DNA of 61,358 nt, filler included, from Sanchytrium tribonematis (lineage: Eukaryota): assembly GCA_018985235.1 (NCBI GenBank). It is 13 parts of 13 records of this genome, joined end to end, with 100 filler letters (N's around TTAATTAATTAA, not from the genome) between each part and the next. Parts side by side here need not be neighbours in the genome. Positions count along the whole stretch, not along the records: positions 19,917 to 41,697 come from JADGIG010000088.1; 12 more parts are not named here. One strand, 5' to 3'. Below are positions 9,885 through 60,499 of this stretch, one piece after another. How positions within the stretch are numbered: the stretch's first letter is position 1; the number at the start of each line of letters is the position of its first letter. A program made the translations under genes and the position numbers. The notes beneath the pieces are model-generated. The model was not told the DNA's origin, ran no database searches, and saw only the letters and a program-made list of their open reading frames with translations.

Positions 9885-9984
9885 NNNNNNNNNNNNNNNN
9901 NNNNNNNNNNNNNNNNNNNNNNNNNNNNTTAATTAATTAANNNNNNNNNNNNNNNNNNNNNNNNNNNNNNNNNNNNNNNNNNNN

Positions 9985-21219: not shown

Positions 21220-21579
21220 ATGTTTTACTTGATTCTTTCAGCACATAAAATCTCTATAAATGGCAAATGCGGTCTCCGAAATGGACTCACGAAATGCCCT
21301 GGTGTTCAATATTGTAGTATAGTTGGATATTGTGGTACTGGTGTTGAATTTAAAAATGGATGTCAACCCCATTTTAGTGCTACTGGATTATGTAAAAATA
21401 TCCCCAAAACACCAGTTTGTGGATTAAATCACAATCGCAAAGTATGCGCGCGTGGTATGTGGTGTAGTTCAGATGGTTTTTGTGGGAATACAATGAAGTT
21501 CAGAAGAAATTGCCTATATGCATTCAGTTATCCTGGTATTTGTAAAGAGCCACAAGGCAGTGGAGGAATTGGTGAATAA
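21220..21579 (+). CDS. Secreted protein with two CBM18/hevein-like domains (6-Cys variant)
   Basis: GKCG...C...YCSIVGYCG...GCQPHFS and VCG...WCSSDGFCG. Confidence 0.85.
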   Translation: MFYLILSAHKISINGKCGLRNGLTKCPGVQYCSIVGYCGTGVEFKNGCQPHFSATGLCKNIPKTPVCGLNHNRKVCARGMWCSSDGFCGNTMKFRRNCLYAFSYPGICKEPQGSGGIGE

Positions 21580-21613: not shown

Positions 21614-23216
21614 TTAGTAGTAAATGCTCTTCAATTGTTCCAATATCTCGTTGATGGTAATTCTGTCTTTAGGTTTCTGCTGCCACGCATTATTAATAAT
21701 AAAGTATAAATTGGGTTCGAATTGCTGTTGAGTAAATGGACGTTCTCCTTTCAATATTCGTTTTTCAATATCATTCTTCTCCAATTTCTCCCATGGTATT
21801 TTACCTGTCGCCATTTCCCCCAAAACAATTGCAAATGAAAAAATATCTGCAAATGGATACAAATTAAGGCGCCCAACCAAATTTTCATTAAATAACCAAT
21901 ATTCTGGTGATTTCCAATTGACAATACTCATTTGTTTACTTAATCTCGTTGTGGTGCTGATAATTTTAACCATTCTAAAGTTAATCAATTTGGGAGAAAA
22001 TTGAGAATCCAATATAATATTGGCTGATTTGACATCGTTGTGCGCAATCCCATTATTATGCATATATGCTAAACCATTAGCAACTCCAATTTGGATTTGT
22101 TGTTTTTGTTGTGAGTACTTTGGGATCATTTTCAAAATTGGGAAATGTGTGTAGCCAATCATACAATGAAAAGTTGTCAATATATTCCATGACAAGTGCC
22201 AAATCCCCAATGATTGAAGTAACTCCAAAATATTTGCAAATATAATCACATTTGCATAATAACTCCAATAATTTAATTTTTTTCTTATGATGACCTGTCA
22301 ATTTATCCGTGTGTGTCTTTAAATTCACAAATAACAGCAATTTTCTTTCCCTGCCATTCTCCTAAATAAACAAAACTATATGTGCCTTCACCCAGTTGTT
22401 TGTCTTTAAATACATCGACGTTGTTAATGTAGTCAAATTCCCTTACACCTACAGCTTTAAATTCATGATTCACATCTGCAAAAGTGTTTGAGATTTTGAT
22501 TGGACTGGGAATAATGTACCAATAATGTTTTAAATTGGTGTCTATTTCATTGACTTGTACTAATTTATCATTTTCTACTTTTAAATAGTATCCAATTGAG
22601 TTTGAAATGGAAAAATATCCATTATTTTCCACTTTGATGCACCATTCCTCATTTTTATCTACTTTTAAAAGATCACTTTCTTGGTAAAGTTTGTAAATAT
22701 CTGAACTATTATTCAGTCTACTAAAATGTATCATTGTGGCCTGATTCCCAATTGTCCAACCAGATGAAACGCAATTTCCAAATCCATTTGTTACAAAACA
22801 TAAACAACCTTGATTTGGGACACTGCTATGAGAGGCTAATTGAAAAATATTGGCCAAATTGTCAATCACTTCATTAGCTATGGGATCAGTGGCAGCAAGG
22901 TATTCATTATGACTTAATAATGAAAATGCGTATTTGACGTAATCCCTGGTTCTGGAAGTTTTGAATTGGTAAGTTTCCCTTTTATTGTTTCTGTATTCAA
23001 GACCTAAATTTGTTATACTAGGTACTCTGACTTGAAAATCAAATCTATGGGTGTATAGAGGTTTGGAAATCTATATTTCAACATTTCCTTTGATGTGGGA
23101 GATTCTTCAATGAAAATATGATATGATTGAAACAATGGATCCATCGGATCAGCAATACTGAGTAAGGCATGCTTTAGAAGACCATTTGTGATGGGACTTA
23201 TTGGTAATTGATCCAT
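21614..23216 (-). pseudogene. TKL-type protein kinase with N-terminal beta-trefoil-like region, disrupted
   Basis: LGEGTYSFVYLGEWQG, HNDVKSANII, WKSPE, DIFSFAIVLGE. Frameshifts include one at the VAxK lysine; DFG reads NFR; in-frame stops upstream. Confidence 0.8.
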
Positions 23217-23363: not shown

Positions 23364-24359
23364 TTAATTATTTGGATCACAAAATCCATAATCTAATTGA
23401 CATCCTTTTGATTTTGCACAACTATCTGCCTTGTCTCCACAAATACTGTTCTTTCCACAACACAAATTTGTAGTATCATCTCCAACACACTCTTTTCTGA
23501 TTCCATTTCCATTATCTGTGGGCCCACAAGCTTCTCCTAATTTCACATATTGCGTTAATAAATTCAATCCACAAAGTCCGAAAGGCTTTTGACAACCAGT
23601 TCCACAATGCTGTGCATCAAATCCACAATAACCATCTGGTGAACAGCATTTCTCAGCGCGCATGACTATAGGGCATGATTTGTTGTTAAACGGAGTGCCA
23701 CATCTGCCATATAATTCACCTTTACACTCTCCAAATAGGGGATCGCATCCATTTGCATCTGTTCTGCAGATATCGAAAGAATCTCCGCACACCCCTAAAG
23801 ATTTAGAGCAGCACATACCTATTCGGCATTTTGCATTAAATCCATTTGGACCACATTTCTGGAAATATCCCACTCCAGCAACACATCCACTCTCAGACCA
23901 GGTTGGTTGACAACTATTTGCATTACAATGTGCATCCGTATCCCCACAATAGCCATATTTAGAACAGCATAATCCATTTGCACATTTATTGCCATTTAAT
24001 GGACCACATTTCTCACCATTCCCTACAATTTTAGCAACATTACATTGACCATATTGGGATTGACAATCTGATGCATTACAATGTGCATCTGTATTGCCAC
24101 AATAACCATATTTGGAACAACATAATCCGGGTTTGCATTTATTGTTTTTGGGATCTAATGCGGCTAATCCACATTTACCACCATTGTCAATACCAGTAGC
24201 ATTGGTGGCATCACATGGACCATATTGGGATTGACATCCAGTGCCACACCATTCTTTACCGATGCCACACCAATTAAATTGGGAACAGCAACCAATGGCA
24301 CATTTGGGTTTATTAGGACCACAATTTTGAGAGAATACGAGTAGGGATAAGTAGAACAT
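23364..24359 (-). CDS. Secreted lectin-like protein of six CBM18 (hevein) domains, no catalytic domain
   Basis: Six CG...C...CC[SG]...CG...C...C...C units after the MFYLSLLVFS leader. Confidence 0.93.
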   Translation of the reverse strand: MFYLSLLVFSQNCGPNKPKCAIGCCSQFNWCGIGKEWCGTGCQSQYGPCDATNATGIDNGGKCGLAALDPKNNKCKPGLCCSKYGYCGNTDAHCNASDCQSQYGQCNVAKIVGNGEKCGPLNGNKCANGLCCSKYGYCGDTDAHCNANSCQPTWSESGCVAGVGYFQKCGPNGFNAKCRIGMCCSKSLGVCGDSFDICRTDANGCDPLFGECKGELYGRCGTPFNNKSCPIVMRAEKCCSPDGYCGFDAQHCGTGCQKPFGLCGLNLLTQYVKLGEACGPTDNGNGIRKECVGDDTTNLCCGKNSICGDKADSCAKSKGCQLDYGFCDPNN

Positions 24360-25799: not shown

Positions 25800-26723
25800 A
25801 TGCTCATATTGTATTTATTAATTGCCATTTCTGTCAAATCACTTGCCATTGTGAGTAAATCCCTATTTATTGGTGCAAATGCATTACAATCTGGATCATT
25901 CTCATCTAGTCGTATATCCAGTGCATCTACCAGTATGAGAATAAGAGATACATCCCATGTAGACATACCACATTCTGATGCATTTATTTTACCAATTGAA
26001 GGTAGAAAATTATCATCCAGAAAAAGAAGGAAACTAGAGGCACAAGGGATTAATCCATTTGATGAATCTACATTTAATAATAGACTGAGTGATGCAGAGA
26101 TTGAATTGGCGCGTGATTTGGAATTAATCAAGGAAATTCAACAATATACACGAAATATTGTATTCAATAATTGGAATCGCGTAAGAAATCAAATTTTTAA
26201 TTTATATGCGAATTCAGATGGATATATTGAAGATGTATATACAGGTAAATTACATTTAATTACAAATTCATTGTCTATTGAGCATATCGTACCAAAAAGT
26301 GTTGTGATTAGAGATTCTGAAATAAGTAATGATTTGCATAATTTGATACCTGTGAATGCACATTTGAATGAGAGACGGAAGAACTGGCCATTCGCAGAAC
26401 CATCTAAAAGATTTAAATGGACTGGAAATCAAGAATCTTGTGTGGTTAATGAAGAAATGTATGTCAGAACTGAAATTAGAGGCATGATTTCCAGGGCTGT
26501 CATTTATGTATTAGTGGTATATGGGGATAGGTTATTGGCAAATAGAATCAAGGGAAATGAAGTAGGAGATTTAAATATGTTTGTGAGATGGTGTAAAGAC
26601 TATAAAGTGAGTGAATTAGAAAAATGGAGAAATGATGAAATTGAGAAAATACAGGGAAATAGAAATGTATTTGTGGATCATCCAGAGTTGTGTGATTTGG
26701 TATTGAGACTGTATAATGTGTAA
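25800..26723 (+). CDS. Secreted endonuclease I (EndA/NucM-like His-Me finger nuclease)
   Basis: SIEHIVPKS, NDLHNLIPV...NERRKNWPF, RGMISRAVIY, EKWRNDEIEKIQGNRNVFVDHPE; leader MLILYLLIAISVKS. Confidence 0.9.
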   Translation: MLILYLLIAISVKSLAIVSKSLFIGANALQSGSFSSSRISSASTSMRIRDTSHVDIPHSDAFILPIEGRKLSSRKRRKLEAQGINPFDESTFNNRLSDAEIELARDLELIKEIQQYTRNIVFNNWNRVRNQIFNLYANSDGYIEDVYTGKLHLITNSLSIEHIVPKSVVIRDSEISNDLHNLIPVNAHLNERRKNWPFAEPSKRFKWTGNQESCVVNEEMYVRTEIRGMISRAVIYVLVVYGDRLLANRIKGNEVGDLNMFVRWCKDYKVSELEKWRNDEIEKIQGNRNVFVDHPELCDLVLRLYNV

Positions 26724-28394: not shown

Positions 28395-28877
28395 ATGTTT
28401 TTCGTTACATTCTCTTTAGCATCTCCAATTGGTGATATCATTTGTCCTAAAACTGGATCAACAGTGTGTGGTGGATTGAATGGAAAGCAAAAGGAATATC
28501 CCAATAATTGTCAAGCAAACTATGCAGGAGCAACTGTATTTTTAAGACGAAATTGTCTAGAATCTAAAAACAATGAGATTGTTTGTCCACTAGTGACTGC
28601 AAAAGATTCCAGAACTTGTGGTAAAGTCAAAAACAGACCACAACTGTTTGACAGTCTTTGTTTAGCATTGAAAAGTAAAGCGACTATTGTGAAGGACGAT
28701 GATTGTAAAACAGATCCAATTGATTGCCATGTTAAATGGGGTCCCGTATGTGGTACGTTAAATGGTAAAAGGCAAACATTTCAAAACAATTGCAATGCAG
28801 AAAAGCAAGGTGCAATCAAAATCAAACAGGGTCCTTGCCCATTATTCATGACAAAGCAGCAAAACATATTTAAGTAA
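28395..28877 (+). CDS. Secreted Kazal-type protease inhibitor with three four-Cys domains
   Basis: C....VCG...YPNNC...C and two similar units; leader MFFVTFSLA. Confidence 0.85.
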   Translation: MFFVTFSLASPIGDIICPKTGSTVCGGLNGKQKEYPNNCQANYAGATVFLRRNCLESKNNEIVCPLVTAKDSRTCGKVKNRPQLFDSLCLALKSKATIVKDDDCKTDPIDCHVKWGPVCGTLNGKRQTFQNNCNAEKQGAIKIKQGPCPLFMTKQQNIFK

Positions 28878-37287: not shown

Positions 37288-38220
37288 ATGCAATGGCTCA
37301 TCCAACTCGCTCTCATGATCATTATCCCATATGTCATCAAATGGATATCCAATTTAAGAAATAAACCCATCAAAACCAAACAACAATACAGAATCCAACA
37401 ATTTAAACAATCCAAATCCCATTCCAAATTACCCTATTTACTATTGTTAATTGGATTATCCGTATTCGGATATTTGATAATCAATCCACATGAATCTAAT
37501 TTCACTAAATTGCAAATCAAATCCAATTCTAAAACATATCAAATTAGAAATGCATTGCGACACTATTTGCAAGATCAAACACCGTCTAGTCCTGAATTTG
37601 ATTTAAATGCATTTGAACCAGTGAGTCTTGTGAATGCTAAGAATGAATATGATACGATGAAAGTATGGTATGAATTCATCAAGAATAGATCTAAAAAACA
37701 ATTATACGATCGATTTGGAGATGCGATTTATTGTGATTATTGCAAAGATGAATTGGATTATGCGTTTATTTACGCCCCACACGTCTTTAAATGTTATTTG
37801 GGCATGTTTTTATTGATTGGATTAATTAGCATGTCCTTTATCAAAGCACAATGGCGATTTCCTGCTTCTATCTTTCTCATGAGTATGATGGGATGCGAAT
37901 TATCTTTGATTTTTAGTGGGTCTGATTTATTAGAGCAATTGGATTATAAATATCATCATGAACAAGCTGATTATATCAGACATGTCATGTTCTTTATTTT
38001 ATTAGTGGCCATGTTGATTAAGAATAAACCTGATTTGAAGCGTGAAGATGAGGAGATGTTACATTGTGATGCCCTACAATCGATTGCTTTGAAGCAATTT
38101 AAAGTGGTTAAAGCATTGCAATTACAACAGCAAGTGGATGAGGGAGTGAGTATGGGACCCATGACACCTATTAAAAGACATTTATTGCGAGAAATGAATG
38201 TAGAAGAAATGGTTGAATAA
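37288..38220 (+). CDS. Membrane protein with degenerate J-domain-like region (no HPD) and CxxC
   Basis: NFTKLQI...IRNALR, YEFIKN...LYDRFG, CDYC; several TM helices. Confidence 0.6.
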   Translation: MQWLIQLALMIIIPYVIKWISNLRNKPIKTKQQYRIQQFKQSKSHSKLPYLLLLIGLSVFGYLIINPHESNFTKLQIKSNSKTYQIRNALRHYLQDQTPSSPEFDLNAFEPVSLVNAKNEYDTMKVWYEFIKNRSKKQLYDRFGDAIYCDYCKDELDYAFIYAPHVFKCYLGMFLLIGLISMSFIKAQWRFPASIFLMSMMGCELSLIFSGSDLLEQLDYKYHHEQADYIRHVMFFILLVAMLIKNKPDLKREDEEMLHCDALQSIALKQFKVVKALQLQQQVDEGVSMGPMTPIKRHLLREMNVEEMVE

Positions 38221-38231
38221 ATACGTGATTT

Positions 38232-39233
38232 TTAATTCTCTTGGGCTAATTGTTCTAATAACATTTCTAGTTCCCTTAATAATAGTTGCTCGTCTTTTTC
38301 TGTTAATACGTCTACATGCTCAGTCAATTTCTGCATCCATTGATGATTTAATGCTTGACTTGCAGTTAATCTTTCATTTGGATTTGTTTTAGTCAATTGC
38401 CATACGAAATCAACCATATCATCTTGATTTAATTGAGCCAACTTTGATTTCCTATATTTTGGTGATTTTCGATTAAATAAATGCGATAAGCTGTAAAATC
38501 TATCGGTTTCTGAATGTGGGTCGAATTCAACTATTTTTGAAAGTTCTAGAATTAAAACACCCACCATAGCACCCAGTTGATACATATCTGCTTGAATTGG
38601 ATGGTATTGAGTGTAATCATTTTGCATTTCTGGTGACATGTACAAATATGTTCCAATAGATCCTCGTCTACTTTTACTTTTGATCATGTTTTCCAAATCA
38701 CCCAATACAGCATGCCATTCATCATTTACATTTTCCAAGAATATATTCTCTGGTTTAATATCCAAATGGGCAATTCCTCGTAAATGAATATGCTTTAATC
38801 CTCTTAATATTTGTTGAATCACAATTCCAATAAAATTGATTTTTACATGATTATCTGCTGATATTGTATGAATACGCGTATGTAGATCCATTGGATAATA
38901 ATTCATAATGATCTGATGACAATCCATCTCTTCAATGGCATCTGGTGGCGTCATCATCTCAAATCCACCATATTCACCAGAAATGATATTCGGATGTTTG
39001 TATTTCAATTTACCAAACATTTTCATCCAATTTACTTCTATTTTGACATGTTTTTGCAAATCTTTATCATTTTTAGTGATGCAAATCAGTTTAATTGCAT
39101 TTGAATCATGTTTATAAACAGTAGTGATTTTAACGCCAGTATCAGTCAATTTTATTTGATTGGTTCTTGGTATGAATGTCAATTGATTCATGGGAATTTT
39201 AAATTGTGAGAATACAAAGCATGTCAACAACAT
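38232..39233 (-). CDS. Atypical Ser/Thr kinase with signal-like leader, copy 1
   Basis: AIK, HLDIKPEN, DLE, GTYLYMSPE, DMYQLG; leader MLLTCFVFS. Confidence 0.88.
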   Translation of the reverse strand: MLLTCFVFSQFKIPMNQLTFIPRTNQIKLTDTGVKITTVYKHDSNAIKLICITKNDKDLQKHVKIEVNWMKMFGKLKYKHPNIISGEYGGFEMMTPPDAIEEMDCHQIIMNYYPMDLHTRIHTISADNHVKINFIGIVIQQILRGLKHIHLRGIAHLDIKPENIFLENVNDEWHAVLGDLENMIKSKSRRGSIGTYLYMSPEMQNDYTQYHPIQADMYQLGAMVGVLILELSKIVEFDPHSETDRFYSLSHLFNRKSPKYRKSKLAQLNQDDMVDFVWQLTKTNPNERLTASQALNHQWMQKLTEHVDVLTEKDEQLLLRELEMLLEQLAQEN

Positions 39234-39314
39234 TGGGGAAATTTGTAAATTTGAGGAGAAATGCGTGATTGGATCGTGATTGGATATCATTTATTTGTGA
39301 TTGAACAATAGAAA

Positions 39315-40364
39315 TCAGAGGGATTTACCACGTGGTATTTGTTTAGCAGATTTGTTGGGTATGTAATCCTGTAATTGGATATCTATATTTTCAACATCCT
39401 TTAACCATGGATCTTTTAATGCATCTGATGCAGAATAACCGATTAAACTGTTCCACTTACTCCTAGTCAATCGGCGTATTAGTCTTATCATCAAATGAAA
39501 TGATTTTGGTAATTGTCTAAATGCATCTTTCTTCAATTTGCTAAAAGACTCAATTTGATGCGCTTTTGATACAGTATCAGATTCAAATCTAGTTTTAGTA
39601 AATAATTCAAGAGTCAAAACACCCAAAGTGGCACCCAATTGATATAAATCAGCTCTTTTTGTGTTATAAGATTTATATTTGTATTTCATTTGCGGCGGAA
39701 TGTAAATTGATGTACCACGTGGTTCATTTAATCTTTTCTGATCCGTCATGGTTTCTAAATCACCCAGTACCACAACCATTTGATTCTCGATCAAGTGAAT
39801 GAATACATTCTCTGGTTTTACATCCAAATGTGCCTTGCCCTTTGAATGAAGATATTCCAATCCTTTTAATACCCGATAAGTGACTATTTTCATTATTTTC
39901 AAGTATTCCGCTTCATATAAGATATTCAACTCTGATTTTGCTTCAGTTGATTCTTGAATTTGGATCTTTAATTCAAAAACTCTATAAAATTCGTTTAAAA
40001 ATGAAGTTAAATCATACTCGTAATAGGGCATAATAATTTGATAACAATTTAATTTATACTCTATTTCGTCATGTATTCGAATGATGTTAGTCTCCATCCC
40101 TCCAAATTCACCCTTTATGATATGATCATGTTGGAAAGTTTTCATCATCTTAATTTCATGCTGCACTATAGGTACCAATATTTCATTGTTAATGCAAATG
40201 AGTTTGACTGCTTTGATGTCACTTAAATCACTTTTTGTTTTGTAAATAGTCGTAATATGTACTTCATCATTTCCAGTATCTCTTTTTTGTTCTGCTATTG
40301 GTTTGGGGTCTAATTTACTCAATGGAATGGTGAATTGGGCAAATATCAACCATGAAATCAACAT
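39315..40364 (-). CDS. Atypical Ser/Thr kinase with signal-like leader, copy 2
   Basis: AVK, HLDVKPEN, DLE, GTSIYIPPQ, DLYQLG; leader MLISWLIFA. Confidence 0.88.
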   Translation of the reverse strand: MLISWLIFAQFTIPLSKLDPKPIAEQKRDTGNDEVHITTIYKTKSDLSDIKAVKLICINNEILVPIVQHEIKMMKTFQHDHIIKGEFGGMETNIIRIHDEIEYKLNCYQIIMPYYEYDLTSFLNEFYRVFELKIQIQESTEAKSELNILYEAEYLKIMKIVTYRVLKGLEYLHSKGKAHLDVKPENVFIHLIENQMVVVLGDLETMTDQKRLNEPRGTSIYIPPQMKYKYKSYNTKRADLYQLGATLGVLTLELFTKTRFESDTVSKAHQIESFSKLKKDAFRQLPKSFHLMIRLIRRLTRSKWNSLIGYSASDALKDPWLKDVENIDIQLQDYIPNKSAKQIPRGKSL

Positions 40365-40468
40365 GACAATAGGGGATTCATTGTGATTTTGAGTGACATC
40401 ATTAGGGGAAAATGTGATCATCATGTGAATGGGAGTGAAACAGATTGAAAATAGTCAATTTTATTGAT

Positions 40469-41506
40469 TCAAGTAGTTCTTTGTGATTCAATCATGTTAA
40501 TTATATAATAAGCTAGTTCTGGTAATTTGACATTGGTGATCCATGGATGTTTTAATGCTTGTGCTGCTGTCCATCTATCAGATTCACTGGTTCTAGTGAG
40601 TCTATAAATAAAATCAATCATCAATGGGTCCATTTTTAAGAAATAATTTTTAAATGTAGACGGATTAAAATATTTTGAATCACCCGGTAAATGATTTAAT
40701 ATAAATGAACTAGTCCCATCTTTATTCACTACATACATATTATGACCAAATAATTGTAATACTGCCATTCCCAAAGCAGCACCCAATTGGAACATGTCCA
40801 ATTTCTGAGTATTATATACAGGGAATTGATCCTTTAAATTTCCATATGAATCAAACATTTGGGGTGGTAAATAGTCAGGAGTACCTACAATATCATCTGA
40901 ATATGATTTAAATGTCATGTGTTCATAATCAATTAATATAAAATGTAATTTATGATCTTTCTTTTTCACTAAAATATTATCAAATTTCACATCTCTATGG
41001 GCGATTTGATGTGCATGTAAATGATTTAATGCTCTTAATATTTGAGTCATTGCATCTTTCATATTCTGTATAAAAAGCAGTTTAAAATTTGATTCTCTTT
41101 GAATTGTTGTAATATAATCAATTAAATCAGATGGATAGAAATTCATTGATATTTCATAACAATCCACTAAATAAAAACGAGTAAACTTGAATTGAACTTG
41201 TTGTCTCTTTCCCTCAAATGTGCCATGAATTAAATTCACATGATGAAGTGGATAATGTCTAAAATGATTTATCCAAAATATCTCAGATGTGATCATTTTT
41301 TTGAATATATTATGATTCGGATCAATACAATTCAATTTATAGGCTTTAGAATAGTCTTTAGATCTGAAAATAGCTGTTATTTTAAAATCATCATGATGCT
41401 CAATAATTTGCTGATTTCTAAATACTAGATTCTCTAAGAAATAAGATGGTGTTGGTGCGTCATCTGTATTTAATATAGAATATACAAATAGAGTGATGAT
41501 GAACAT
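40469..41506 (-). CDS. Atypical Ser/Thr kinase with signal-like leader, copy 3
   Basis: AYK, HRDVKFDN, DYE, GTPDYLPPQ, DMFQLG; leader MFIITLFVYS. Confidence 0.88.
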   Translation of the reverse strand: MFIITLFVYSILNTDDAPTPSYFLENLVFRNQQIIEHHDDFKITAIFRSKDYSKAYKLNCIDPNHNIFKKMITSEIFWINHFRHYPLHHVNLIHGTFEGKRQQVQFKFTRFYLVDCYEISMNFYPSDLIDYITTIQRESNFKLLFIQNMKDAMTQILRALNHLHAHQIAHRDVKFDNILVKKKDHKLHFILIDYEHMTFKSYSDDIVGTPDYLPPQMFDSYGNLKDQFPVYNTQKLDMFQLGAALGMAVLQLFGHNMYVVNKDGTSSFILNHLPGDSKYFNPSTFKNYFLKMDPLMIDFIYRLTRTSESDRWTAAQALKHPWITNVKLPELAYYIINMIESQRTT

Positions 41507-42268
41507 GTTAGAAGGGATGACAATGATTTGATTTTGGGGATATTTGTGTGACCACATGGTTGCACGGAGATGTCCCTTTTACTTTAGAGCAACACAATCT
41601 ATTCCAATTTTATTTATTAATGTATTGCATAGTAGTTCCTGTAATCCACAAATGATTGATTTTATATGGAAATTAACTAGAAATAAACCTGAAGATCNNN
41701 NNNNNNNNNNNNNNNNNNNNNNNNNNNNNNNNNNNNNNNNNTTAATTAATTAANNNNNNNNNNNNNNNNNNNNNNNNNNNNNNNNNNNNNNNNNNNNGAT
41801 ATTTTTGGAGGGCGTTAAATGTTATATTGGATAAATTTTAAACAAATTACTATAATATTCGAATTGGCTTTTCAAAAAACTAATATAGCACGTGGCACCG
41901 ACGAACACCACGAATATGATCGTGTGGTATCAGCGTTTTGAGGAACTTATCGTGAGGCATTGGAAAAAGTTGATGTCCATGAATTGAAAAAAATTCGTAT
42001 TTTCAAGTCATTTGATGACTTCGGTAAGGTGACGTATCGCATGGTACAAGATACTCCGTTTTAAAGATGTGGCTGATTTCTAGCCGATCGAGAATAAAAT
42101 TGGCTCAGAGGCCTTTCAAAATTATTCGGTGCGAATGGAAAAAAATCGTAGCCATCCGCTTAACCGTTTGATTGCTAAACGAAAACAAATGATTTATTTA
42201 AATTGGTTTTAATGCAGCTTTCTAGTATGCTTTTCCCAAATAAAACAATTCGTCTTTTAACTTGAGAC

Positions 42269-45463: not shown

Positions 45464-45856
45464 ATGTTGTTTCTTTCACTCGTGTTATCCACTGAAGTTT
45501 CTGTTTGTTGGAGTTGGGCATATTATTATTACACCCATAATCAATTGGCTTATGCTGATTATTATGGATGGATTTCCAATTGTTGTGTTTATGGTACGCA
45601 ACCATCTCATTTACTTGGTGGAATTTACAAGAAATCAACCAAAAAAGTGAAAAAAGTTACAAAAGTACCTCTCAATATTCCAGATTCTAGAGTAGATGAT
45701 AGTGATAATTGGGTATCTGTCAATGAAATCACATACAATAAGCATGGTAAGCGAGTATTTTATTATATGCGTGCTAATTGTGCGGCTCAATTGCCATTGC
45801 AACCAACGAGTGATGCTGCTTCTAAAATGACAGCCTGTCTTGACTCTTACCAGTAA
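45464..45856 (+). CDS. Family B copy 2
   Basis: MLFLSLVLS; CWSWAYYYY, WISNCCVYGTQP, IPDS, YMRANC, CLDSY. Confidence 0.88.
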   Translation: MLFLSLVLSTEVSVCWSWAYYYYTHNQLAYADYYGWISNCCVYGTQPSHLLGGIYKKSTKKVKKVTKVPLNIPDSRVDDSDNWVSVNEITYNKHGKRVFYYMRANCAAQLPLQPTSDAASKMTACLDSYQ

Positions 45857-46023
45857 ATATGAAATGAATTTTACCATTTAGCTCAAAAATCCTTGGGTCT
45901 CTTGTTGTACCAATCTGGTATAAGCAAGAATTAATTTGCAAACAGGAAAGCAAAACAATCCTTTATTTGATTGGTACCATTTCCAGTCACGAATCTACTT
46001 AAACCCCACCCACTTTTATTGAT

Positions 46024-46419
46024 ATGTTGCTCATCCAAGTTGTTTTATCTACAGCTGTCAGTGTTTGTTGGAAATGGGGGTATTATTATTTGAATAAAGG
46101 CTGGTTAAATTCATCCACGTATTACCCATGGATTGCAGATTGTTGTGTATTTGGATCACAACCAAATAGTTGGATAGATGGTACCAAAACAAGCAACGGT
46201 AAAAAACACCATGTAAAACCCAAAACAATTCCACTCCAAATTCCTGATTCTACAATCAGAGACACGGATTTGGCTGTATTATCATCCGGGATTGAATACA
46301 ATATACATGACAAACGAGTTTTCAAATATATGCGTGTTGCATGTATCCAACAAGTAGGAGACGCGCGTCCTAAAAATGTGGATGACTATTACAATAATTG
46401 TATTGATAGTTATACATGA
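46024..46419 (+). CDS. Family B copy 3
   Basis: Same motif set; leader MLLIQVVLS. Confidence 0.88.
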   Translation: MLLIQVVLSTAVSVCWKWGYYYLNKGWLNSSTYYPWIADCCVFGSQPNSWIDGTKTSNGKKHHVKPKTIPLQIPDSTIRDTDLAVLSSGIEYNIHDKRVFKYMRVACIQQVGDARPKNVDDYYNNCIDSYT

Positions 46420-46610
46420 ATAAAAATGTATGAATTGTGATCTTTGACTTGGGTTGCTTACTCTGCTTGCTAAATTGATTTTCAATACCACTCAAATTCA
46501 TTCAATTTAACAAAATGAAACTTGCACCAATTGATTCACTGCTAAATTTTACAAGCCATTTCGACAAGTATATTGAGATCTATTTAAGCGTGTCTGTCCC
46601 ATCCATTTAA

Positions 46611-47159
46611 ATGTTGTTCATTCAAATGATTCATTCTGCCACAGTTGCAACTTGTTGGGCGTGGGCGTATTATTATTACTACCACGGCAAATTATCAGCA
46701 GCCAATTATTATACCTGGATTGCAGATTGTTGTGTGTATGGCACACAGCCAGATCATTGGGAAGACGGTGTAGATGGCGGAGATGACAAGGGAAATAAAC
46801 ACCCACCTACCAAATTCACTAAAATCCCATTGGATATTCCAGATTCAGCTGTTTATGATGATGGCAATATTATTTCTGTTCAGACTCAAGAGTACAATTC
46901 ACATAATGTTCGAATTTATAAATATATGCGAGTAGATTGTTTGACTGCAGTCGCTCATACCAACTCAACGGATGTAGAAGGGGATTATTCACATTGTATC
47001 AATAGTTATAAGCCAGATAAACCTAGTGCAAAAGATAAAAATGATCATAAAGGGGGTAAAAAGGGAGACAAGAAGGGTGGCAAGAAAGACGGTGCGAAAA
47101 AAGGAAGCAAAAAGAATAACAAGTGGAAAAAAGCAGGCAATAAAAAGGGAAACAATTAG
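46611..47159 (+). CDS. Family B copy 4, with Lys/Gly-rich tail
   Basis: Same motifs plus KGGKKGDKKGGKK tail. Confidence 0.88.
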   Translation: MLFIQMIHSATVATCWAWAYYYYYHGKLSAANYYTWIADCCVYGTQPDHWEDGVDGGDDKGNKHPPTKFTKIPLDIPDSAVYDDGNIISVQTQEYNSHNVRIYKYMRVDCLTAVAHTNSTDVEGDYSHCINSYKPDKPSAKDKNDHKGGKKGDKKGGKKDGAKKGSKKNNKWKKAGNKKGNN

Positions 47160-47395
47160 TAAATATGATTTGAAATTGTAAAACTCTGCCATTTCCAATT
47201 ATTTCCTAATGAAATAATTACCTTGGGGGTATTGCCATTCCCACTTTGTTGTTTAGCCATGACAATTTTACACGATTTTATATTACAAAGTTTCATTTGC
47301 AATCCATTTGATTGGCCTTGCACCAACAAAATACGTGCTAATTAAATGAAATTGCGCTAATAAAATCTATTTAAACTTGATCCTCCCCACTACTT

Positions 47396-47797
47396 ATGTT
47401 GTTTATTCAATTTGTACTCTCTGCTTCTGTAAATGTGTGTTGGACTTGGGCTTATTACTATTACCAAAAAGGTCAATTAACTTCTGATAATTATTATAGT
47501 TGGATTGCCAATTGTTGTGTTTATGGGACTCAACCATCGACTTATAGCAATGGCAGGTATGTGAGAACGAATAGTTTATCATTTTATCCATTAAGGCCTT
47601 CTAAAATTCCATTAAATATTCCGGATACCAAAGTAGATGATGGAGACCCAATTGTATCTGTGAATGAAATTAAATACAATAAGAATAACAAGCGTATTTA
47701 CAAGTATATGCGAGAGAATTGTGCGGCTAAATTGCCAAAGAAACCAGATAGTAATAATGAAAGACGGTTGACAAAATGTTTGGATTCTTACGAATAA
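47396..47797 (+). CDS. Family B copy 5
   Basis: Same motifs; leader MLFIQFVLS. Confidence 0.88.
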   Translation: MLFIQFVLSASVNVCWTWAYYYYQKGQLTSDNYYSWIANCCVYGTQPSTYSNGRYVRTNSLSFYPLRPSKIPLNIPDTKVDDGDPIVSVNEIKYNKNNKRIYKYMRENCAAKLPKKPDSNNERRLTKCLDSYE

Positions 47798-48376: not shown

Positions 48377-49850
48377 ACCATTTCAGGAGTATTTTACAAC
48401 AAAATATCTATTTTATGCAGTGGTCCTGCAATTGATTCTATTCAACTCATCGGTTTGAATATTAATGGAACTATAATTAATGGTACTTTACCCTCAAAAG
48501 CTAGATCCCTTCAAATTTCATACAATTCAAAATTGGCATGTAATTTCCCAAGTGGAAATTTCCTGAATGTAGTGAATTTAGATTTGAGCCATAATGCGTT
48601 ATATGGTGATATTTTATCCATGTCTCCCAAGTTCACATCCGCCAATGTAGAATATAACCAATTAAGTGGCACATTACCCCAATTTTCTACAGCTCTACAA
48701 ACTTTGATTTTGAATAACAATCAATTTACCGGAGATTTTAAATTGTATAGTGCTACCCGGTTATCTGTGTTTGAAGCCAATAACAACCTTTTAAGTGGTT
48801 CTGTAAATAATATCACAGATTCATTAACTACTTTTTGTGTAGATGGTAATTTATTAACTGGCAATATTGACAATATCCCAAATCAAATCGTTTATTATTC
48901 AGCCAGTCATAATCAATTATCTGGTAAATTAACAGCCAATTGGCCATTCACATTAACCACTTTGAATTTAAATGGAAATCAATTTAATGGAACATTTCCA
49001 ATCAGTTTAATGCGACAAGTGCAATCATTAATGATTCAAAATAATCAATTTAGTGGGTGTTTGAATAATACATTTGCGTGTTTTAATTGTCAATTAAATG
49101 ATAATCAGTTTCAAGGGTCTGTTGTGTTTCAAAAACCAAGTAATTTGACATTACAGAATAATTTTATCACCAATGTAACAATTGTGGATAAATCTAGTTT
49201 ATTAAATTGTCAATTAGATAATAATCCAATGTTGGGTACCATTGGGGGTAAAACATTTGCAAATTCATGTTCTATTAATGGAATATTTATGGATACAGGA
49301 TATCATTGTGGGAAAGCATATACGCGATTGTATAATACAATAACAAGTGAGAGTACTTCTAGTACGACAACAGCGAAAAAGACTAGTTTAAGTGCAATAG
49401 AGACAACAATAAACACCAATCTACCAAGCAGATCATTGGATACAACAGAAAGTCGTCTAGAAACCTTGACAACTAGCAATTTAGAGTCACAAGAAATAAT
49501 TGCAGAGTCAATTACAGATGTATTTACAATTCAAACACGTTGTTCTTAATAATTTAGGACCCATTTTTGTTAGTAAATTGACTAAAACAGTCGATAATCA
49601 AGTATCACGTAGCACATTGTATCAAAAAGTAATTTCAAACACTGTTTCATTAAAATTGAAAACAGATTTTACATCTACAAGCAGTATTGAGAAATGGAAT
49701 GGTTCAATCAACGAGTTCAAATTGAAATATGAGACCAGTCAAGTTGCTAGATTGGGATTCAGCTTAATATTTATTGGGTTTATACTGGCGAAAATGCCAT
49801 TGAAAAAGACATTGAAGAAGAATCATAGAAGTGAAAGTATGGAACAATAA
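48377..49850 (+). CDS. Extracellular LRR protein with S/T-rich stalk and C-terminal TM; 5'-partial, frameshift near 49535
   Basis: LxxNxLSGxLP repeats; Thr/Ser stalk; RLGFSLIFIGFILAKMP anchor. Confidence 0.8.
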
Positions 49851-49935
49851 ATAGATGGATGTGATCAATTGGACAATGAGTATGTCTCTCGATTCAATTC
49901 AACTGCTTAAATTACCCACTTTACCCATCTTCTTG

Positions 49936-51559
49936 ATGCTACTGACGCTGCTGCTCAATTTCTCAGTATCAATAGACTGTCCAATAGTCTTGAAACTAGC
50001 TACGCAGATGCATTTTAAGCAGAAGTTCCCGACAACCTACCAGCAACTGGAGAAAGACTGCTGTTTGGATTCTGGAATAGTTTGTCAAGATGGACGCGTT
50101 ACACAGATGCGATGGACAGATTCTACCGGGTATTATTCTCCAGAGCCCACAATTAAAGAGCCAAACACGACCATTTACTCATTTCCTTCGAGTCTTGAAG
50201 TTTTGGATATGGACCAGTTTTTTGGGGGCACTATCAACGAATTGCCAGTGAATATGACATATTTAAGATTGGTTACATCTTATGTCACGTTGAATGTGAG
50301 TGCAATGTCTCAGAAATTGACATATGCATATTTGGATTTTGTAAACTGCATTCAAGACGCAATTTGGGGGGACAGTCTTTCTACAGTTGATATAGAATCA
50401 TCCAATATGATAGACTTTCCAAAGCTACCTGCTTCGGTAAAAGATTTGAAAATGTGGAGGAATAGATTTACAAAAAAGACATCAAAATACCTGATTGGCC
50501 TGTAGCTCTAAATAGGCTTACTTTGGTTGGTTGTTATTTTACGAGCGTGTCTCCAGAATTACCAGATAATCTGAGCTATCTTGAAATCAGAGAAACAAAC
50601 CTTGGTGGTGATTTAATTTTGAAAAATGTTATAAGCGTTTTTCTACGATACACTAATTTCGCAAATATATATGCTTGGACTATACCGCTTGGGTGTACTA
50701 TTGTAAATCATCCGAGTTTGAACATGTCGAGTGTAGCGAATATGACTACTTCGAATTGTTACATCAGTCAACCTAAAACAGCGCCAAAAGATTGTGCCCA
50801 AATTGTCAAAATGGCCGAATTATTACATATTCCAACTGCTTCACCTGGTGAATTTGAACTACTGAAAGCAAATTGTTGCGAATTCAGATATTTTACTTGT
50901 ACCGGAAATCATGTTGTTGGCGTTTGCTTGGCTGAATTGAGTCTATATGGTACTTTAGATGTATCTTTGCTTCCAGCTACTGTTACGTTATTTGAAATAT
51001 TTGGAAATCACGTTAACAAAGTCATTGGGCAATTTCAAACTACCAATTTGCAGCAAATGTACATGGATTATAATGAGATAAGTGGACCCTTATTTGAAAT
51101 TCCCTCAACTTTGACTACCTTATTTATTGGTAAAAACTTCTTAAATGGGACCATAGACTTGTCAAATGCGAGAAATTTGAAACTTTTGGGAATTGGAGAT
51201 AATTATTTTGAAGGTGCCTTGAATATCAGTGGATTGAGTCTATCATTACTTCAATATTGAAATCGGATATGACTATTACTACCTAAATGGTACATTTGGC
51301 CCACTTGGATTGCCTCCTCATCCACACAGTTTATGGTAATTTCCCACAAATCCCCTTGAATATGACTCAGATTACAATTAGCAATTGCTTTATGGGTGGA
51401 GATCTGCCTGTGTTTCCACCTACTTTGAGCGTATTGTCGTTAAATAGAGCAATGTGGGCTATTACCAATGTTTATTTGACGGGTAATTTGACTTTGAATG
51501 CGCCATCCATTGTCCAGATTGCCAGTAATCAAATTACAAGTGTGAATATAAATGATGCA
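49936..51559 (+). pseudogene. Multi-module LRR protein with DC...CC...C caps, several frameshifts, 3'-partial
   Basis: Leader MLLTLLLNFS; caps DCPIVLKLA...DCC and DCAQIVKMA...NCC; frames break at ~50475, ~51243 and ~51320. Confidence 0.75.
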
Positions 51560-54935: not shown

Positions 54936-57900
54936 TACAGATTGAGGATCAACCAATGAATGCATTTATAGATTCAGGATCATCGATAAGTATTATCGAT
55001 AAAGACACAATGAAGGATTATGGTCTATTAGACCATTCGGAAGATTGCTATAAGGCATTTTCTTCTATTAATAACCACAAAGTAGTGGCGGAAAAGAAAT
55101 TAAGGATTGGAATTCAATTAGGTAATGTGACTATTACAACTACATTATATGTACTAAATAATTCCAAATTTAAATTGCTTCTTGGAATGAATTTTCCAAT
55201 GCAAGTAGATAGTATTAGTTTTAAAAACATGAATGTCATGTACAAGGGTATAAAATTTCCCTTAAGACAGAATTTACTAAATGATCATATTAATGTTGTT
55301 TCTGAAGATTCTATTGATGGAGAGATTCCATTTTTCGATGATTTTGATGGTGGATTAGATGCCAAAAAAATTTGGTATGGAAGAAAATCGATCAACCATA
55401 TGCAATATACTTAAGAGTCATAAAGGGGTTTTTGATGGAAAACTCGGTGCGGATGTACCCATTGAGCATGAAATTAAGATCAGTGATGTTCCAAAGTCAT
55501 TTAAACCATATAATGCCTCACATAAAGAGAGAGGTATAATTGAAAAAGAAATTCAAAAGATGTTAGATTTAGACGTAATTGAGAGAAGTCCAGCGTCTCC
55601 ATATAGTGCACCGGTAGTGCTCGTTTCAAAAGCCAATACAACAGAAATGAGATTTTGTGTTGATTATAGAGCATTAACTAAAAACTCAGAATCAGATTCA
55701 TACCCACTACCAAAGATAGATGTAATTTTAAAGGAATTCCACGGAAAGAAATATTTTACAAAAATAGATTTAAGAAAAGGATATTGGCAAATACCAATGA
55801 AAAAAGAGGATATCATAAAAACAGGATTCATTACACACATGGGTCATTTTGTGTATAAAAACATGCCATTTGGACTTATGAATTCAGGCAAAACGTTTCA
55901 AAAGATTATGGATCTAGTATTTTCCGATTACCTTAATCATGAGGTTTTCTGCTACCAGGATGATATATTAATTACCTCGGATACAGAAGAGAGACATCTA
56001 GAAATGATTAACAATGTATTCGACTTGTTAGAAAAATATAATTTAAAGGCATATTGCAACAAGTGTACTTTTATGTTTACGAGTGCGACTTATTTGGGAT
56101 TTTATTTGGGTGGTCAAGTTGTCAAACCAGATCCAGAGAGTCAAGCCGATTTTAGATTTTGATTCGCCAACAAACATTAAGCAAATGCAAAGATTTTTAG
56201 ATATGGTAGTTACTATCGAGGTTCTGTTCAAAAATTTGCTATCATTGCTCAGCCAATGTATAAGTTACTTCGCAAAAGAGAGAAATTTTTGTGGGGAAAA
56301 GAACAGAATGAGTCATTTGAAAAGATCAAAGAGTTGATCAAATATCCCATCTTGCTTAAACACGCAGATTTCGAGAAACCATTTACAATAGAAGTGGATG
56401 CATGTGACCATGGAGTTGCAGCAATATTAAAACAAGACGGACATATTATAGCTTTAGCTTCAAGATTGCTAAAAAATAATGAATTGAGATGGCCAGTTAG
56501 AGAAAAAGAGCTATATTCAATTGTTTTCGCATGTACAAAATTTAGATTTTTCATTGATGCAAAGAACGACACTATTTTAAAAACAGATCACTTAAGTTTG
56601 AGTTATTTAAAGACAATGAAGATTAGTGCGAAAATTAGTCGATGGGTAATGTTCTTAATGGAATTCAATTTAAACGTATTTTATGTACAAGGATCTCAAA
56701 ACAAGGATGCAGATCTATTAAGTAGACTAAATGACAAACTAGAAGATGTTTGTGCAGCGTTCACCAGAGGACAGAAACGAAAGGAAGCCATTGATTACAA
56801 GGCTGAATCAGGAAGTATTGAATCAGATGCAGACAATTATTCCATAGAAAACAGGTCATTCGAAAATCAAACAAATGATGCTGAATTGACAGTAGATGAA
56901 ATCAAATCAATGCACGAAGAAATGTCACATATTGGCATTGACAAAATTTACAAGTACCTAAGAGAAAGAGGATATCCAGTCACGAAAAAGAATTGTGGAG
57001 ATGCAATTAGAGACTGTGTTGTATGCCAGTCATCAAAGAAGACTGCAAGACATATCAAGAAAGTGGTCCAGGATGTGGATTATGGACTTTATCCTATGCA
57101 TACAGTTGCAATGGATGTAGTTGGTAAATTACCAACAATAGAAACAGATGGACAAGAATATTCATATCTATTAGTTATAGTAGATATTTTTACTCGATGG
57201 TGTGAAGTAATACCATTAAATGGACTAACTGGTCCCGAGACAATGAACAAATTTAAAAATGAATGGATCTCAAGATATGGACGACCACAAATGCTTTTGT
57301 TAGACAATGAAACTAACTTTACAGCAAACAAATTCAAAGCGTATTTAGATAAGGAGAATATTGAATATCATTTTACATCTCCAGGATATAAACCCGGAAA
57401 CGGTTCTGTGGAGAGATTAAATTTGACCATATTAGATTACGTCAGAGCAAATATCATTGATGACAACTGGTTAGAATCACTAAACAAAATATTGCCAGTA
57501 CTAAGATTTTCATATCATAGGTCTATTGATACAAGCCCTTATGAATTATTATTTGGGCTCAAAGCTGAGTGGGGAAGTAAAACTGTCTTAAATAGACATA
57601 ACCACTTACTTACAAGATGGAATGACATTAACAATAATGCTTCCTTAGAAAATTATGTGAATCGAGAAGTAACAAGAAAAAGACTGGAATCTAAAAAGCC
57701 AGCAATTCCAATTCAATTAAATGATATGGTATTAGTACCAAATCCAGATGATAAAACTAAAATTGATAAAGAATTTGTAGGACCATATAGGGTTGTAGAG
57801 ATTTTGCCCTACGGAAATATACTAACTGATAACGGAGGCCGATTCAATCAAAACCAAGTTAAAAGAATACAAGATAAAATTACAAGTGGAGATGTAGAAA

Positions 57901-58104
57901 ACATTAACGCTTTATACGAACTACCGATGACAAAATCTGGTGGGAGTGTCGCATCCAACACGTTATATCAAAGCGTGATTGGATGTAATTTAGATCAAAA
58001 TGATCTAATTGATCTAGTCAATTCAAGACAAGATCCAAGTCCTCTAATAAGGCTTGGATCCCAATCAGATGATGGCGCATGCTTAACTAAACAAAGCATG
58101 CGCT
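54936..58104 (+). mobile_element. Ty3/gypsy element 3: protease-RT-RNaseH-integrase with frameshifts, PPT and start of the 3' LTR at 57947
   Basis: FIDSGSS, IDLRKGYWQI, YQDD, VDACDHG, EKEL, ADLLSR, HEEMSH...CVVC, integrase D-D-E, GPY; TGGTGGGAG then TGTCGC. Confidence 0.93.
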
Positions 58105-58204
58105 NNNNNNNNNNNNNNNNNNNNNNNNNNNNNNNNNNNNNNNNNNNNTTAATTAATTAANNNNNNNNNNNNNNNNNNNNNNNNNNNNNNNNNNNNNNNN
58201 NNNN

Positions 58205-59357: not shown

Positions 59358-60499
59358 ATGTTGTTGGTACCATCGCTTTTTGCGTTGACGGATTGTGAGA
59401 ATTTGAAACAATTTGCAATCCATTTAAATATGCCACAAATTCAACCAGATTTGATGAAAGATGTCATTAACAAATGTTGTACAGAATATATCAATGGAGT
59501 AACGTGTGACTTGGGAGTTATTACAAGTGTAGAATGGTCATATTTGGGGTTAAATGGCACCATTGATACAACTTTTTTACCTTATCAATTGATTCATTTG
59601 AATCTAGAACAGAATCAATTAAATGGAACTCTGCCACAGACAGGATATCCCGTCACTTTAGAGAGTATCAATGTGGCCACAAATCAATTTAGTGGGAAAA
59701 TACCTCGATTCCACAATGGTTTGGTTAGCATGACACTCGAAAATAATTACTTTACTAGTTTTGATACATTACCAGTCACTTTGACTCTCTTCTATGCAAA
59801 TTTCAATCAGTTAAATCAAAGTTTCCCAGAAAATTTGCCAAAGGATATAATTCGATTCTCAGCTCAAAGCAATCGACTAAATGGTACAATAAGCAATTTG
59901 CCTGCAACTTTGACTTCTCTAAATTTAGCATACAATTTTATGAGTGGTGTCATTCCAAATCTTCCTGCTGGTTTTTTGTATTTAGTGGTACATTACAATC
60001 AATTCATAGGATTGACATATCCACTTCCGGACTCACTTAAAAATATGGTCCTGAGCTATAATTTTATTGTGGGTTCTATTATATTTCCACCAAATATAGG
60101 AGGATTTCTTGCAAATTCAAATTATTTTTATGGCAATTTGCCGCAATTTTCATTGTCTTTGGAATATTGAATGAAACCGCTTCAACTAGAACGTATTTCA
60201 TTGCAGCCACTAGAAATATAAAACGAACAACAGAAATGACAACATTTACAAAAACGGCAAATTATCCATTTTCCAACACCATTTCTGACTTGACAGAAGC
60301 AGAGACAGAACCAACCGAGTCTGTCATTAAAATCCCACTTTATGAAGTCAATTTTACGCAATTCACTATGAATTTGACCATATTATCATTTGCAAGATCA
60401 CTTGCTTCCATGTTTATACTTGCATTTGTTATTGCTAAGACGCCTTGGAGGAAATCAGCTAAAAGAGATACATCATCAATGTCCATGTCAATAAATTAA
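59358..60499 (+). CDS. LRR protein (DC...CC cap, LRRs, S/T stalk, TM), interrupted at 60170
   Basis: MLLVPSLFA; DCENLKQFA...KCC...WSYLGLNGTI; second ORF supplies the stalk and RSLASMFILAFVIAKTP anchor. Confidence 0.75.

Follow-up and report, generated by a model that had tools for sequence, protein, structure and literature searches.

Divergent protein kinases that leave the parasite cell have been found in several lineages. The FIKK kinases of Plasmodium, marked by an F-I-K-K motif in subdomain II, are exported, expanded, and active without the glycine triad. In the case of Toxoplasma, the sections dealing with WNG1 describe a kinase with no glycine-rich loop (Gly-loop), in which a Glu replacing the DFG Gly is required for activity and the Km for ATP is 520 µM, and which phosphorylates secreted proteins of the parasite itself (PMC6442604). 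The ROPK families, according to the portions of the study cited here, mix active and dead members and carry a disulfide in the C-lobe, at the WC motif of helix F (PMC3682881). Secreted divergent kinase families are thus already known in coccidia, and the relevant parts of two further reports extend them to oomycetes, with the secreted kinase CRN8 of Phytophthora infestans, a modular protein with an N-terminal translocation domain (PMC3426532), and, as a prediction, to two microsporidia, with expanded kinase families among the predicted host-exposed proteins; the idea of a kinase expansion is therefore not new for fungal-type parasites (PMC5423893). Here we describe a kinase family of Sanchytrium tribonematis, first seen as three adjacent genes in a stretch of 61,358 nucleotides, filler included, from assembly GCA_018985235.1 (hereafter, the window). 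Sanchytrids are zoosporic fungi that, as outlined in part of an earlier account, settle as cysts on algal cells and use a short rhizoid to breach the wall (PMC8371127). The family is real, lineage-specific, and predicted to be secreted, and it is apparently unreported; by analogy, its closest counterpart is found in WNG and not in ROPK or FIKK.

The window is stitched from separate pieces with gaps of 100 N between them, and the contiguous sequence around the kinases covers only positions 19917-41697, with the array at its right end (G+C content about 0.33). On the minus strand within 38232-41506, three intact open reading frames (ORFs) follow one another head to tail: gene 1 at 38232..39233 (333 residues from the presumed start), gene 2 at 39315..40364 (349 residues), and gene 3 at 40469..41506 (345 residues). 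Their Pfam Pkinase scores of 95, 63, and 78 bits, respectively, all exceed the cut-off of 31.7, and genes 2 and 3 are 33-38% identical to gene 1, which bears out the three tandem paralogs of a preliminary description of this DNA. An inverted scrap of a further paralog, from the helix αH region (41652..41697, plus strand; 81% over 31 nucleotides against gene 3), has no kinase frame upstream and is cut by the end of the contiguous sequence.

Relatives were collected by an exhaustive profile search, with the best 150 matches, mostly multi-domain proteins, listed; 21 stored proteins were picked from these by length and by the presence of a single match, and 11 of them carry the marks of the family. 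Counting the three window proteins, the family has at least 14 members, which share 22-45% identity (median 27%) and all match PF00069. The 11 named relatives, every one of them labelled Sanchytrium tribonematis, are probably paralogs from one genome, that of the window's own species. In keeping with a sanchytrid source, the RAD23 encoded in the window shares 55% identity with a protein labelled Amoeboradix gromovi. Two of them adjoin on one contig, as judged by their names, and therefore the tandem arrangement recurs. The contigs of run X1 contain further copies closely similar to the 3′ end of gene 3, as well as paralogs that match over short stretches only, so that the count of 14 is a lower bound for the family size, a point raised by the preliminary description. 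Comparison of gene 3 with its two near copies in run X1, among the matches listed, gives 6 synonymous, 11 non-synonymous, and no stop changes in 17 codons, too few for selection to be read from them.

In a tree of 60 rows, comprising the 14 members and 46 of 80 single-domain kinases and built without any WNG sequence, the members form one clade (support 100/97, with the bootstrap incompletely settled) that joins no named kinase group with support, and inside which the three window genes are not resolved as mutual closest relatives. The proposal of an independently expanded kinase family in a fungal parasite is thus upheld, and neither fold, nor profile, nor tree assigns the family to a known cytosolic one. 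The protein P0119, from ENA, is a long-branched sister to the family (98/86). It has a short hydrophobic leader, an intact DFG, and no cysteine pair, a combination that would fit export preceding the other changes, and P0119 is possibly a stepping stone, from a related fungus. The FunK1 profile (PF17667) finds no match in the three window proteins and is weak in 4 of the 14 members (best E 2.9e-6, compared with 1.3e-33 for Pkinase); likewise, the ROPK-type kinase-like profile PF14531 finds no match in the three window proteins and weak matches in 3/14 (best E 1.5e-5). Viral and prokaryotic scans (best 80 loci each) returned generic kinases only, the top one at 127 bits against the family profile, and none of the 163 segments from these scans shows both the cysteine pattern described below and D-x-E/D, the looser form of the cysteine pattern appearing in one; there would appear to be no sign of a horizontal source among the loci examined, which does not amount to an exclusion. 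From a metagenome scan came a single weak locus (24%, E 2e-6); its matching strand holds no long ORF, and it was discarded. Word-indexed protein searches, which are insensitive, recovering only 2/3 and 2/14 of their own query sequences, yielded no members from Amoeboradix or other fungi; no microsporidian kinases were among their named matches.

As regards earlier mention of the family, the main text of the sanchytrid genome paper does not contain the terms 'kinase', 'signal peptide', or 'effector', and the names of three member contigs, together with 'signal peptide', had no match in 8 of the 9 supplements searched, the main supplementary PDF being outside the search. Nothing on a loop-less kinase family was found in literature listings on Sanchytrium and sanchytrid kinases, and the part consulted of a survey of early-diverging fungi and their expanded families mentions no such family (PMC8778642).

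The S. tribonematis kinases share with WNG, as far as the latter is described in the sections cited above, their secreted type, a missing Gly-loop, an acid where the DFG Gly would stand, and catalytic residues that are otherwise retained. No GxGxxG occurs within the first 110 residues of any of the 14 members, as had been claimed for the window genes, and in the alignment the third Gly position of the loop is occupied by Thr in 11 of them. The preliminary description had also presented these kinases as lacking DFG. Its reading of the motif (DLE, DLE, and DYE in genes 1, 2, and 3; by sequence comparison, 38691..38699 on the minus strand in gene 1) is correct, and the statement is nevertheless too strong, as the Asp is kept and it is the Gly that has become acidic. 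Family-wide, this position holds Glu in 10 members, Asp in 3, and Gly in 1, i.e. an acid in 13/14, compared with D-x-E/D in 6 of 171 non-family matches. The claimed retention of the catalytic machinery holds well: no member departs from the β3 Lys, the αC Glu, the His, Lys, and Asn of the catalytic loop, the Mg-binding Asp, or the Asp and Gly of helix F, and a single one lacks the catalytic Asp (present in 13/14). HxDxKxxN and the G-T pair ahead of the P+1 loop, both marks of Ser/Thr kinases, are thereby well kept too (G and T each in 13/14). The change reported for APE (SPE, PPQ, and PPQ in genes 1 to 3) is present and of minor weight, since its Glu is kept in 11/14, with the partner Arg in 13/14, and SPE is common in the ordinary kinases aligned here. 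Other departures are an Arg before the catalytic Asp in only 3/14, so that the family is mostly non-RD, a Pro instead of the hinge Glu in 9/14, and a Val instead of the VAIK Ala in 5/14.

There are also differences from WNG. The two families belong to different kingdoms, and the leaders of 8-10 residues are a feature of the S. tribonematis proteins. A basic residue two positions after the VAIK Lys, which in WNG1 is described as the partner of the D-x-E Glu, is found in only one of the 14 members, and therefore the solution is similar to that of WNG1, not identical. The model of gene 1 retains a strand β1 (with a possible bias from the alignment) where the WNG sections report a helical lid. Finally, an invariant cysteine pair is placed on β3 and β5, while the word 'disulfide' is absent from the main text of the WNG paper (PMC6442604). 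Thus, the S. tribonematis kinases would work like WNG, by analogy, yet should not be filed as WNG.

The structure model was built from an alignment of 94 rows, the 14 members plus 80 other kinases, and for gene 1 it reaches a predicted local distance difference test score (pLDDT) of 90.5 and a predicted template modelling score (pTM) of 0.85. Its strands span residues 26-29, 34-42, 45-53, 86-94, and 103-111; the β1-β2 hairpin is kept without its glycines, with strand 26-29 above pLDDT 90, although 80 of the 94 rows are non-family kinases and may bias strand β1, and the β4-β5 hairpin is long. The best fold match is an ordinary kinase (2y7j_A; Z 25.2, root-mean-square deviation 2.9 Å, 255 aligned residues), and the 50 fold matches listed are all tied ordinary kinases (Z 22.2-25.2), with no WNG or ROP structure among them.

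Two cysteines of the N-lobe, noticed by the preliminary description in the window genes, turn out to be invariant in all 14 members at a median identity of 27%, beyond chance, and they occur together in none of the 80 other aligned kinases. In gene 1 they are Cys51 (39081..39083), three residues past the β3 Lys in strand 45-53 of the model, and Cys105 (38919..38921), in β5 (strand 103-111), five residues ahead of the gatekeeper Met; by sequence, the equivalent codons are 40194-40196 and 40044-40046 in gene 2, and 41327-41329 and 41159-41161 in gene 3, all on the minus strand. No other cysteine column is filled in more than three members, and these two are the sole cysteines in the mature chains of the three window proteins. 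In the alignment, Cys51 and Cys105 correspond to Asp75 and Asn115 of PKA. In PKA, β3 and β5 are in register with Ala70 opposite Met120 and Lys72 opposite Met118. The positions of Asp75 and Asn115 we take to be direct cross-strand neighbours at a non-hydrogen-bonded site of antiparallel strands, and on this register Cys51 and Cys105 would be neighbours where such disulfides form. A Cys51-Cys105 cross-strand disulfide in the N-lobe is therefore expected from the confident model, in which the two cysteines lie on strands β3 and β5, as the preliminary suggestion of a disulfide had it.

That description had placed the genes beside ROPK and FIKK. The likeness to exported kinases stands, and WNG is the closer analogue. 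The family resembles ROPK, in the features that the cited portions report, in being lineage-specific, fast-diverging, and signal-peptide-bearing, and in having tandem arrays and two jointly conserved cysteines (PMC3682881); it differs in that both cysteines belong to the N-lobe, with no WC motif or C-lobe disulfide, and in having no long N-terminal extension. As the ROPK disulfide is in the C-lobe, the N-lobe pair is a separate invention. As for FIKK, the F-I-K-K motif is found in 0/14, and the long variable N-terminal region is missing. With CRN8, in the part of that report used here, the proteins have in common that they are secreted-type kinases of a filamentous parasite with a photosynthetic host (PMC3426532), whereas they are no more than a kinase domain preceded by a very short leader. 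The microsporidian families, from the sections available, offer a further parallel, namely a reduced parasite of fungal type in which kinases with targeting signals have expanded (PMC5423893).

All 14 members open with a hydrophobic leader of 8-10 residues, extending what had been noted for the three window genes, where it has 9 residues and ends in V-F-S in gene 1 (39207..39233; a predicted miniature signal peptide), 9 residues ending in I-F-A in gene 2 (40338..40364), and 10 residues ending in V-Y-S in gene 3 (41477..41506), all on the minus strand; the kinase domain begins about 15 residues past it. A rule asking for apolar residues at positions 2-7, a small residue at 8-11, and a small or aliphatic residue two before that holds for 14/14 members, 5/5 window proteins with extracellular domains, and 0/10 intracellular controls; among other kinases it holds for 4 of 264, and among internal Met positions for 2 of 129. 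The extracellular-type controls, recognised through Pfam, are a chitin-binding (hevein) repeat protein (23364..24359, minus; 10-residue leader), a second chitin-binding protein (21220..21579, plus; 8 residues), an Endonuclease I family protein (25800..26723, plus; 9 residues by the rule), a Kazal-like protein whose Pfam match is just below the cut-off (28395..28877, plus; 9 residues), and a leucine-rich repeat (LRR) protein, so that the kinase leaders are like those on other proteins of extracellular type in this organism. The hevein protein, starting at 24359, has the same three residues before the predicted cut as kinase gene 1, and after the cut its chain would start with Gln-x-Cys-Gly. Mature hevein domains begin in just this way. 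About 12 more window ORFs without a Pfam match open with similar leaders. From the presence of these leaders in 5/5 extracellular-type and 0/10 intracellular proteins, the organism therefore seems to use miniature signal peptides, and the device looks as if it were genome-wide.

Starts of this kind (8-11 residues, no n-region) were seen at 21220 (+), 24359 (−), 25480 (−), 25800 (+), 28395 (+), 29016 (+), 33504 (−), 35490 (−), 36049 (−), 36962 (−), 45464 (+), 46024 (+), 46611 (+), 47396 (+), 59008 (−), and 59358 (+). A TATA-like word stands about 25-35 bases before the ATG at 21220, 24359, 29016, 45464, 46024, 46611, 47396, and 59358, and out-of-frame ATGs precede the start of several leader-bearing genes by 5-25 bases; their sequences suggest very short 5′ untranslated regions.

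All together, the best explanation of these observations is a single clade of divergent kinases of Ser/Thr type, with at least 14 members, likely exported, predicted to be clamped by a disulfide, and probably phosphorylating proteins at the interface between the rhizoid and the ATP-rich algal cell, and to this reading we assign a probability of about 0.5. In the mechanism that we propose, the leader would take the chain into the endoplasmic reticulum (ER) and be cut after the small residue at position 8-10, and the β3 and β5 cysteines would bond, stiffening an N-lobe with a glycine-free β1-β2 hairpin and a lengthened β4-β5 one. The acid at the DFG Gly position would aid Mg2+ binding, as in WNG1, giving an active enzyme of low affinity for ATP, and the mostly non-RD catalytic loops would permit activity without phosphorylation of the activation loop. 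Once secreted from the rhizoid, such a low-affinity, constitutively active Ser/Thr kinase could be sustained by host ATP, and fast divergence together with copy gain suggests many different substrates, probably of the host. To judge from their sequences, the members are very probably secreted and most of them are probably active, and the odds are even that host proteins are among the substrates; fast divergence and copy number tilt the balance towards host substrates, while the WNG1 precedent and the predicted disulfide tilt it towards the interface or the lumen. We consider only as tentative, and rather doubtful, the bolder view in which the whole sanchytrid secretome would pass through signal peptides of 8-10 residues and at least a dozen kinases, with an independently evolved WNG-like chemistry and an N-lobe disulfide clamp, would be sent as effectors into algal cells.

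Several points weigh against an exported, active family at the host interface. The single-species origin of all 11 named relatives leaves conservation across species unsupported. As for activity, gene 2 has Gln for the APE Glu and has lost the partner Arg as well, one member has Glu at the catalytic Asp, and the basic residue that assists the D-x-E Glu in WNG1 is nearly always missing. A looser text pattern for the cysteine pair occurs in 5 of 275 other proteins, and the predicted disulfide suits an oxidising site of action more than the host cytosol. The leader rule was made by hand after inspection of the leaders, rather than taken from a trained signal-peptide predictor. By this rule the hydrophobic core and the small residues at −3/−1 of a classical signal peptide are present in 14/14; the leaders are less than half the usual length and have no charged n-region, the typical eukaryotic signal peptide, as described in the parts cited, having one and averaging about 22 residues (PMC2447879; PMC12141369). 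Neither a lower length limit for signal peptides nor a precedent so short was found in the literature searched. In addition, each window kinase gene has an in-frame ATG 51-60 bases upstream (at 39290 for gene 1, 40421 and 40424 for gene 2, and 41557 for gene 3), which would give a leader of 27-29 residues, so that the short-leader start is one that we infer for these genes, and they may have upstream exons. The short leader is favoured by the other members, of which 8 out of 11 have no Met in the predicted ORF ahead of the one that opens the leader, and by gene 1, whose upstream ATG is 25 bases from the gene 2 stop and overlaps an AATAAA. It is also favoured by a locus of run X1 that shares the DNA upstream of gene 3 until eight bases into the ATG region and, past the shared part (loose end 41499, by reading), has a different hydrophobic leader of 11 residues.

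Among the competing explanations, the one that fares best is that of exported, active kinases that phosphorylate, in the ER or Golgi lumen or at the interface, proteins which the parasite itself secretes or has in its wall; we regard it as unlikely, and the leaders, the predicted disulfide, and the catalytic residues fit it equally. In animals, Fam20C and VLK are kinases of secreted proteins. The window is rich in small leader-bearing proteins, some of them Ser/Thr-rich, and WNG1, the closest analogue, targets parasite proteins in the Toxoplasma vacuole, as reported in the sections referred to (PMC6442604). However, luminal housekeeping kinases are expected to be few and conserved, and here at least 14 copies, with more in run X1, have diverged to 22-45% identity; moreover, the three window proteins have neither an ER-retention motif at the C-terminus nor a long membrane anchor. 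The idea that the family consists of secreted pseudokinases or ATP-binding scaffolds without phosphotransfer, similar to ROP5 or BPK1, draws on the missing Gly-loop and DFG Gly, the Pro in the hinge, and the member with Glu for the catalytic Asp, and on the combination of active and dead members in ROPK families, in the portions already cited (PMC3682881). It is improbable, because pseudokinases usually lose their catalytic residues unevenly, and in this family the Lys, the αC Glu, the catalytic-loop Lys and Asn, and the Mg-binding Asp have been kept without exception, and the catalytic Asp with only one, at a median identity of 27%. Most improbable are intracellular kinases of the parasite whose hydrophobic starts are membrane-binding or incidental and whose cysteines are metal ligands or a redox switch. 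Such a view has on its side leaders that fall far short of a canonical signal peptide, nearest ordinary kinases that belong to the cytosol (CAMK- and CDK-type), and an export that is here a prediction from sequence. Against it, the same leader occurs on the chitin-binding, Kazal-like, endonuclease, and LRR proteins and on none of the intracellular controls, its length and final small residue are kept family-wide, and the two conserved cysteines have no third or fourth metal-ligand column beside them.

If exported, active kinases at the rhizoid-algal interface are indeed what the family represents, active kinases that combine D-x-E with a missing glycine loop would have arisen a second time, independently. 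What has been a peculiarity of Toxoplasma would then be a solution that secreted parasite kinases can reach repeatedly, and sanchytrids would have their first candidate effectors. The miniature leaders may matter more: if they function as signal peptides, the length at which eukaryotic signal peptides are known to work would come down, and the secretome of the sanchytrid lineage would be undercounted by standard predictors and by gene calls that take the first ATG.

Some other features of the window deserve mention. Next to the array, a multi-pass membrane protein is encoded at 37288-38220 on the plus strand, its stop lying 11 bases from that of kinase gene 1; it contains a motif reminiscent of the end of a J-domain and has no Pfam match. 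The segment 36850-38363 exists in two haplotype-like versions among the contigs of run X1 (depth about 43-48, compared with 70), which suggests heterozygosity or a second strain. A further kinase, matching a Tyr-kinase-like profile and split into two ORFs by an intron or a break, is found at 21614-22734 on the minus strand and does not belong to the loop-less family. On other pieces of the window, a tandem array of four small paralogs (45464-47797, plus), each with a short leader, Cys, a Tyr run, and a Lys/Gly-rich tail and without a Pfam match, provides candidates for secreted or wall proteins. Several short LRR-like proteins with leaders and Cys-rich N-terminal caps (48620-51260 and 59358-60170, plus) resemble an expanded extracellular LRR family. 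Finally, ORFs for retrotransposon reverse transcriptase and integrase were recognised by eye at 3554-5977, 8749-9936, and 54956-58160, on stitched pieces other than that of the kinases.

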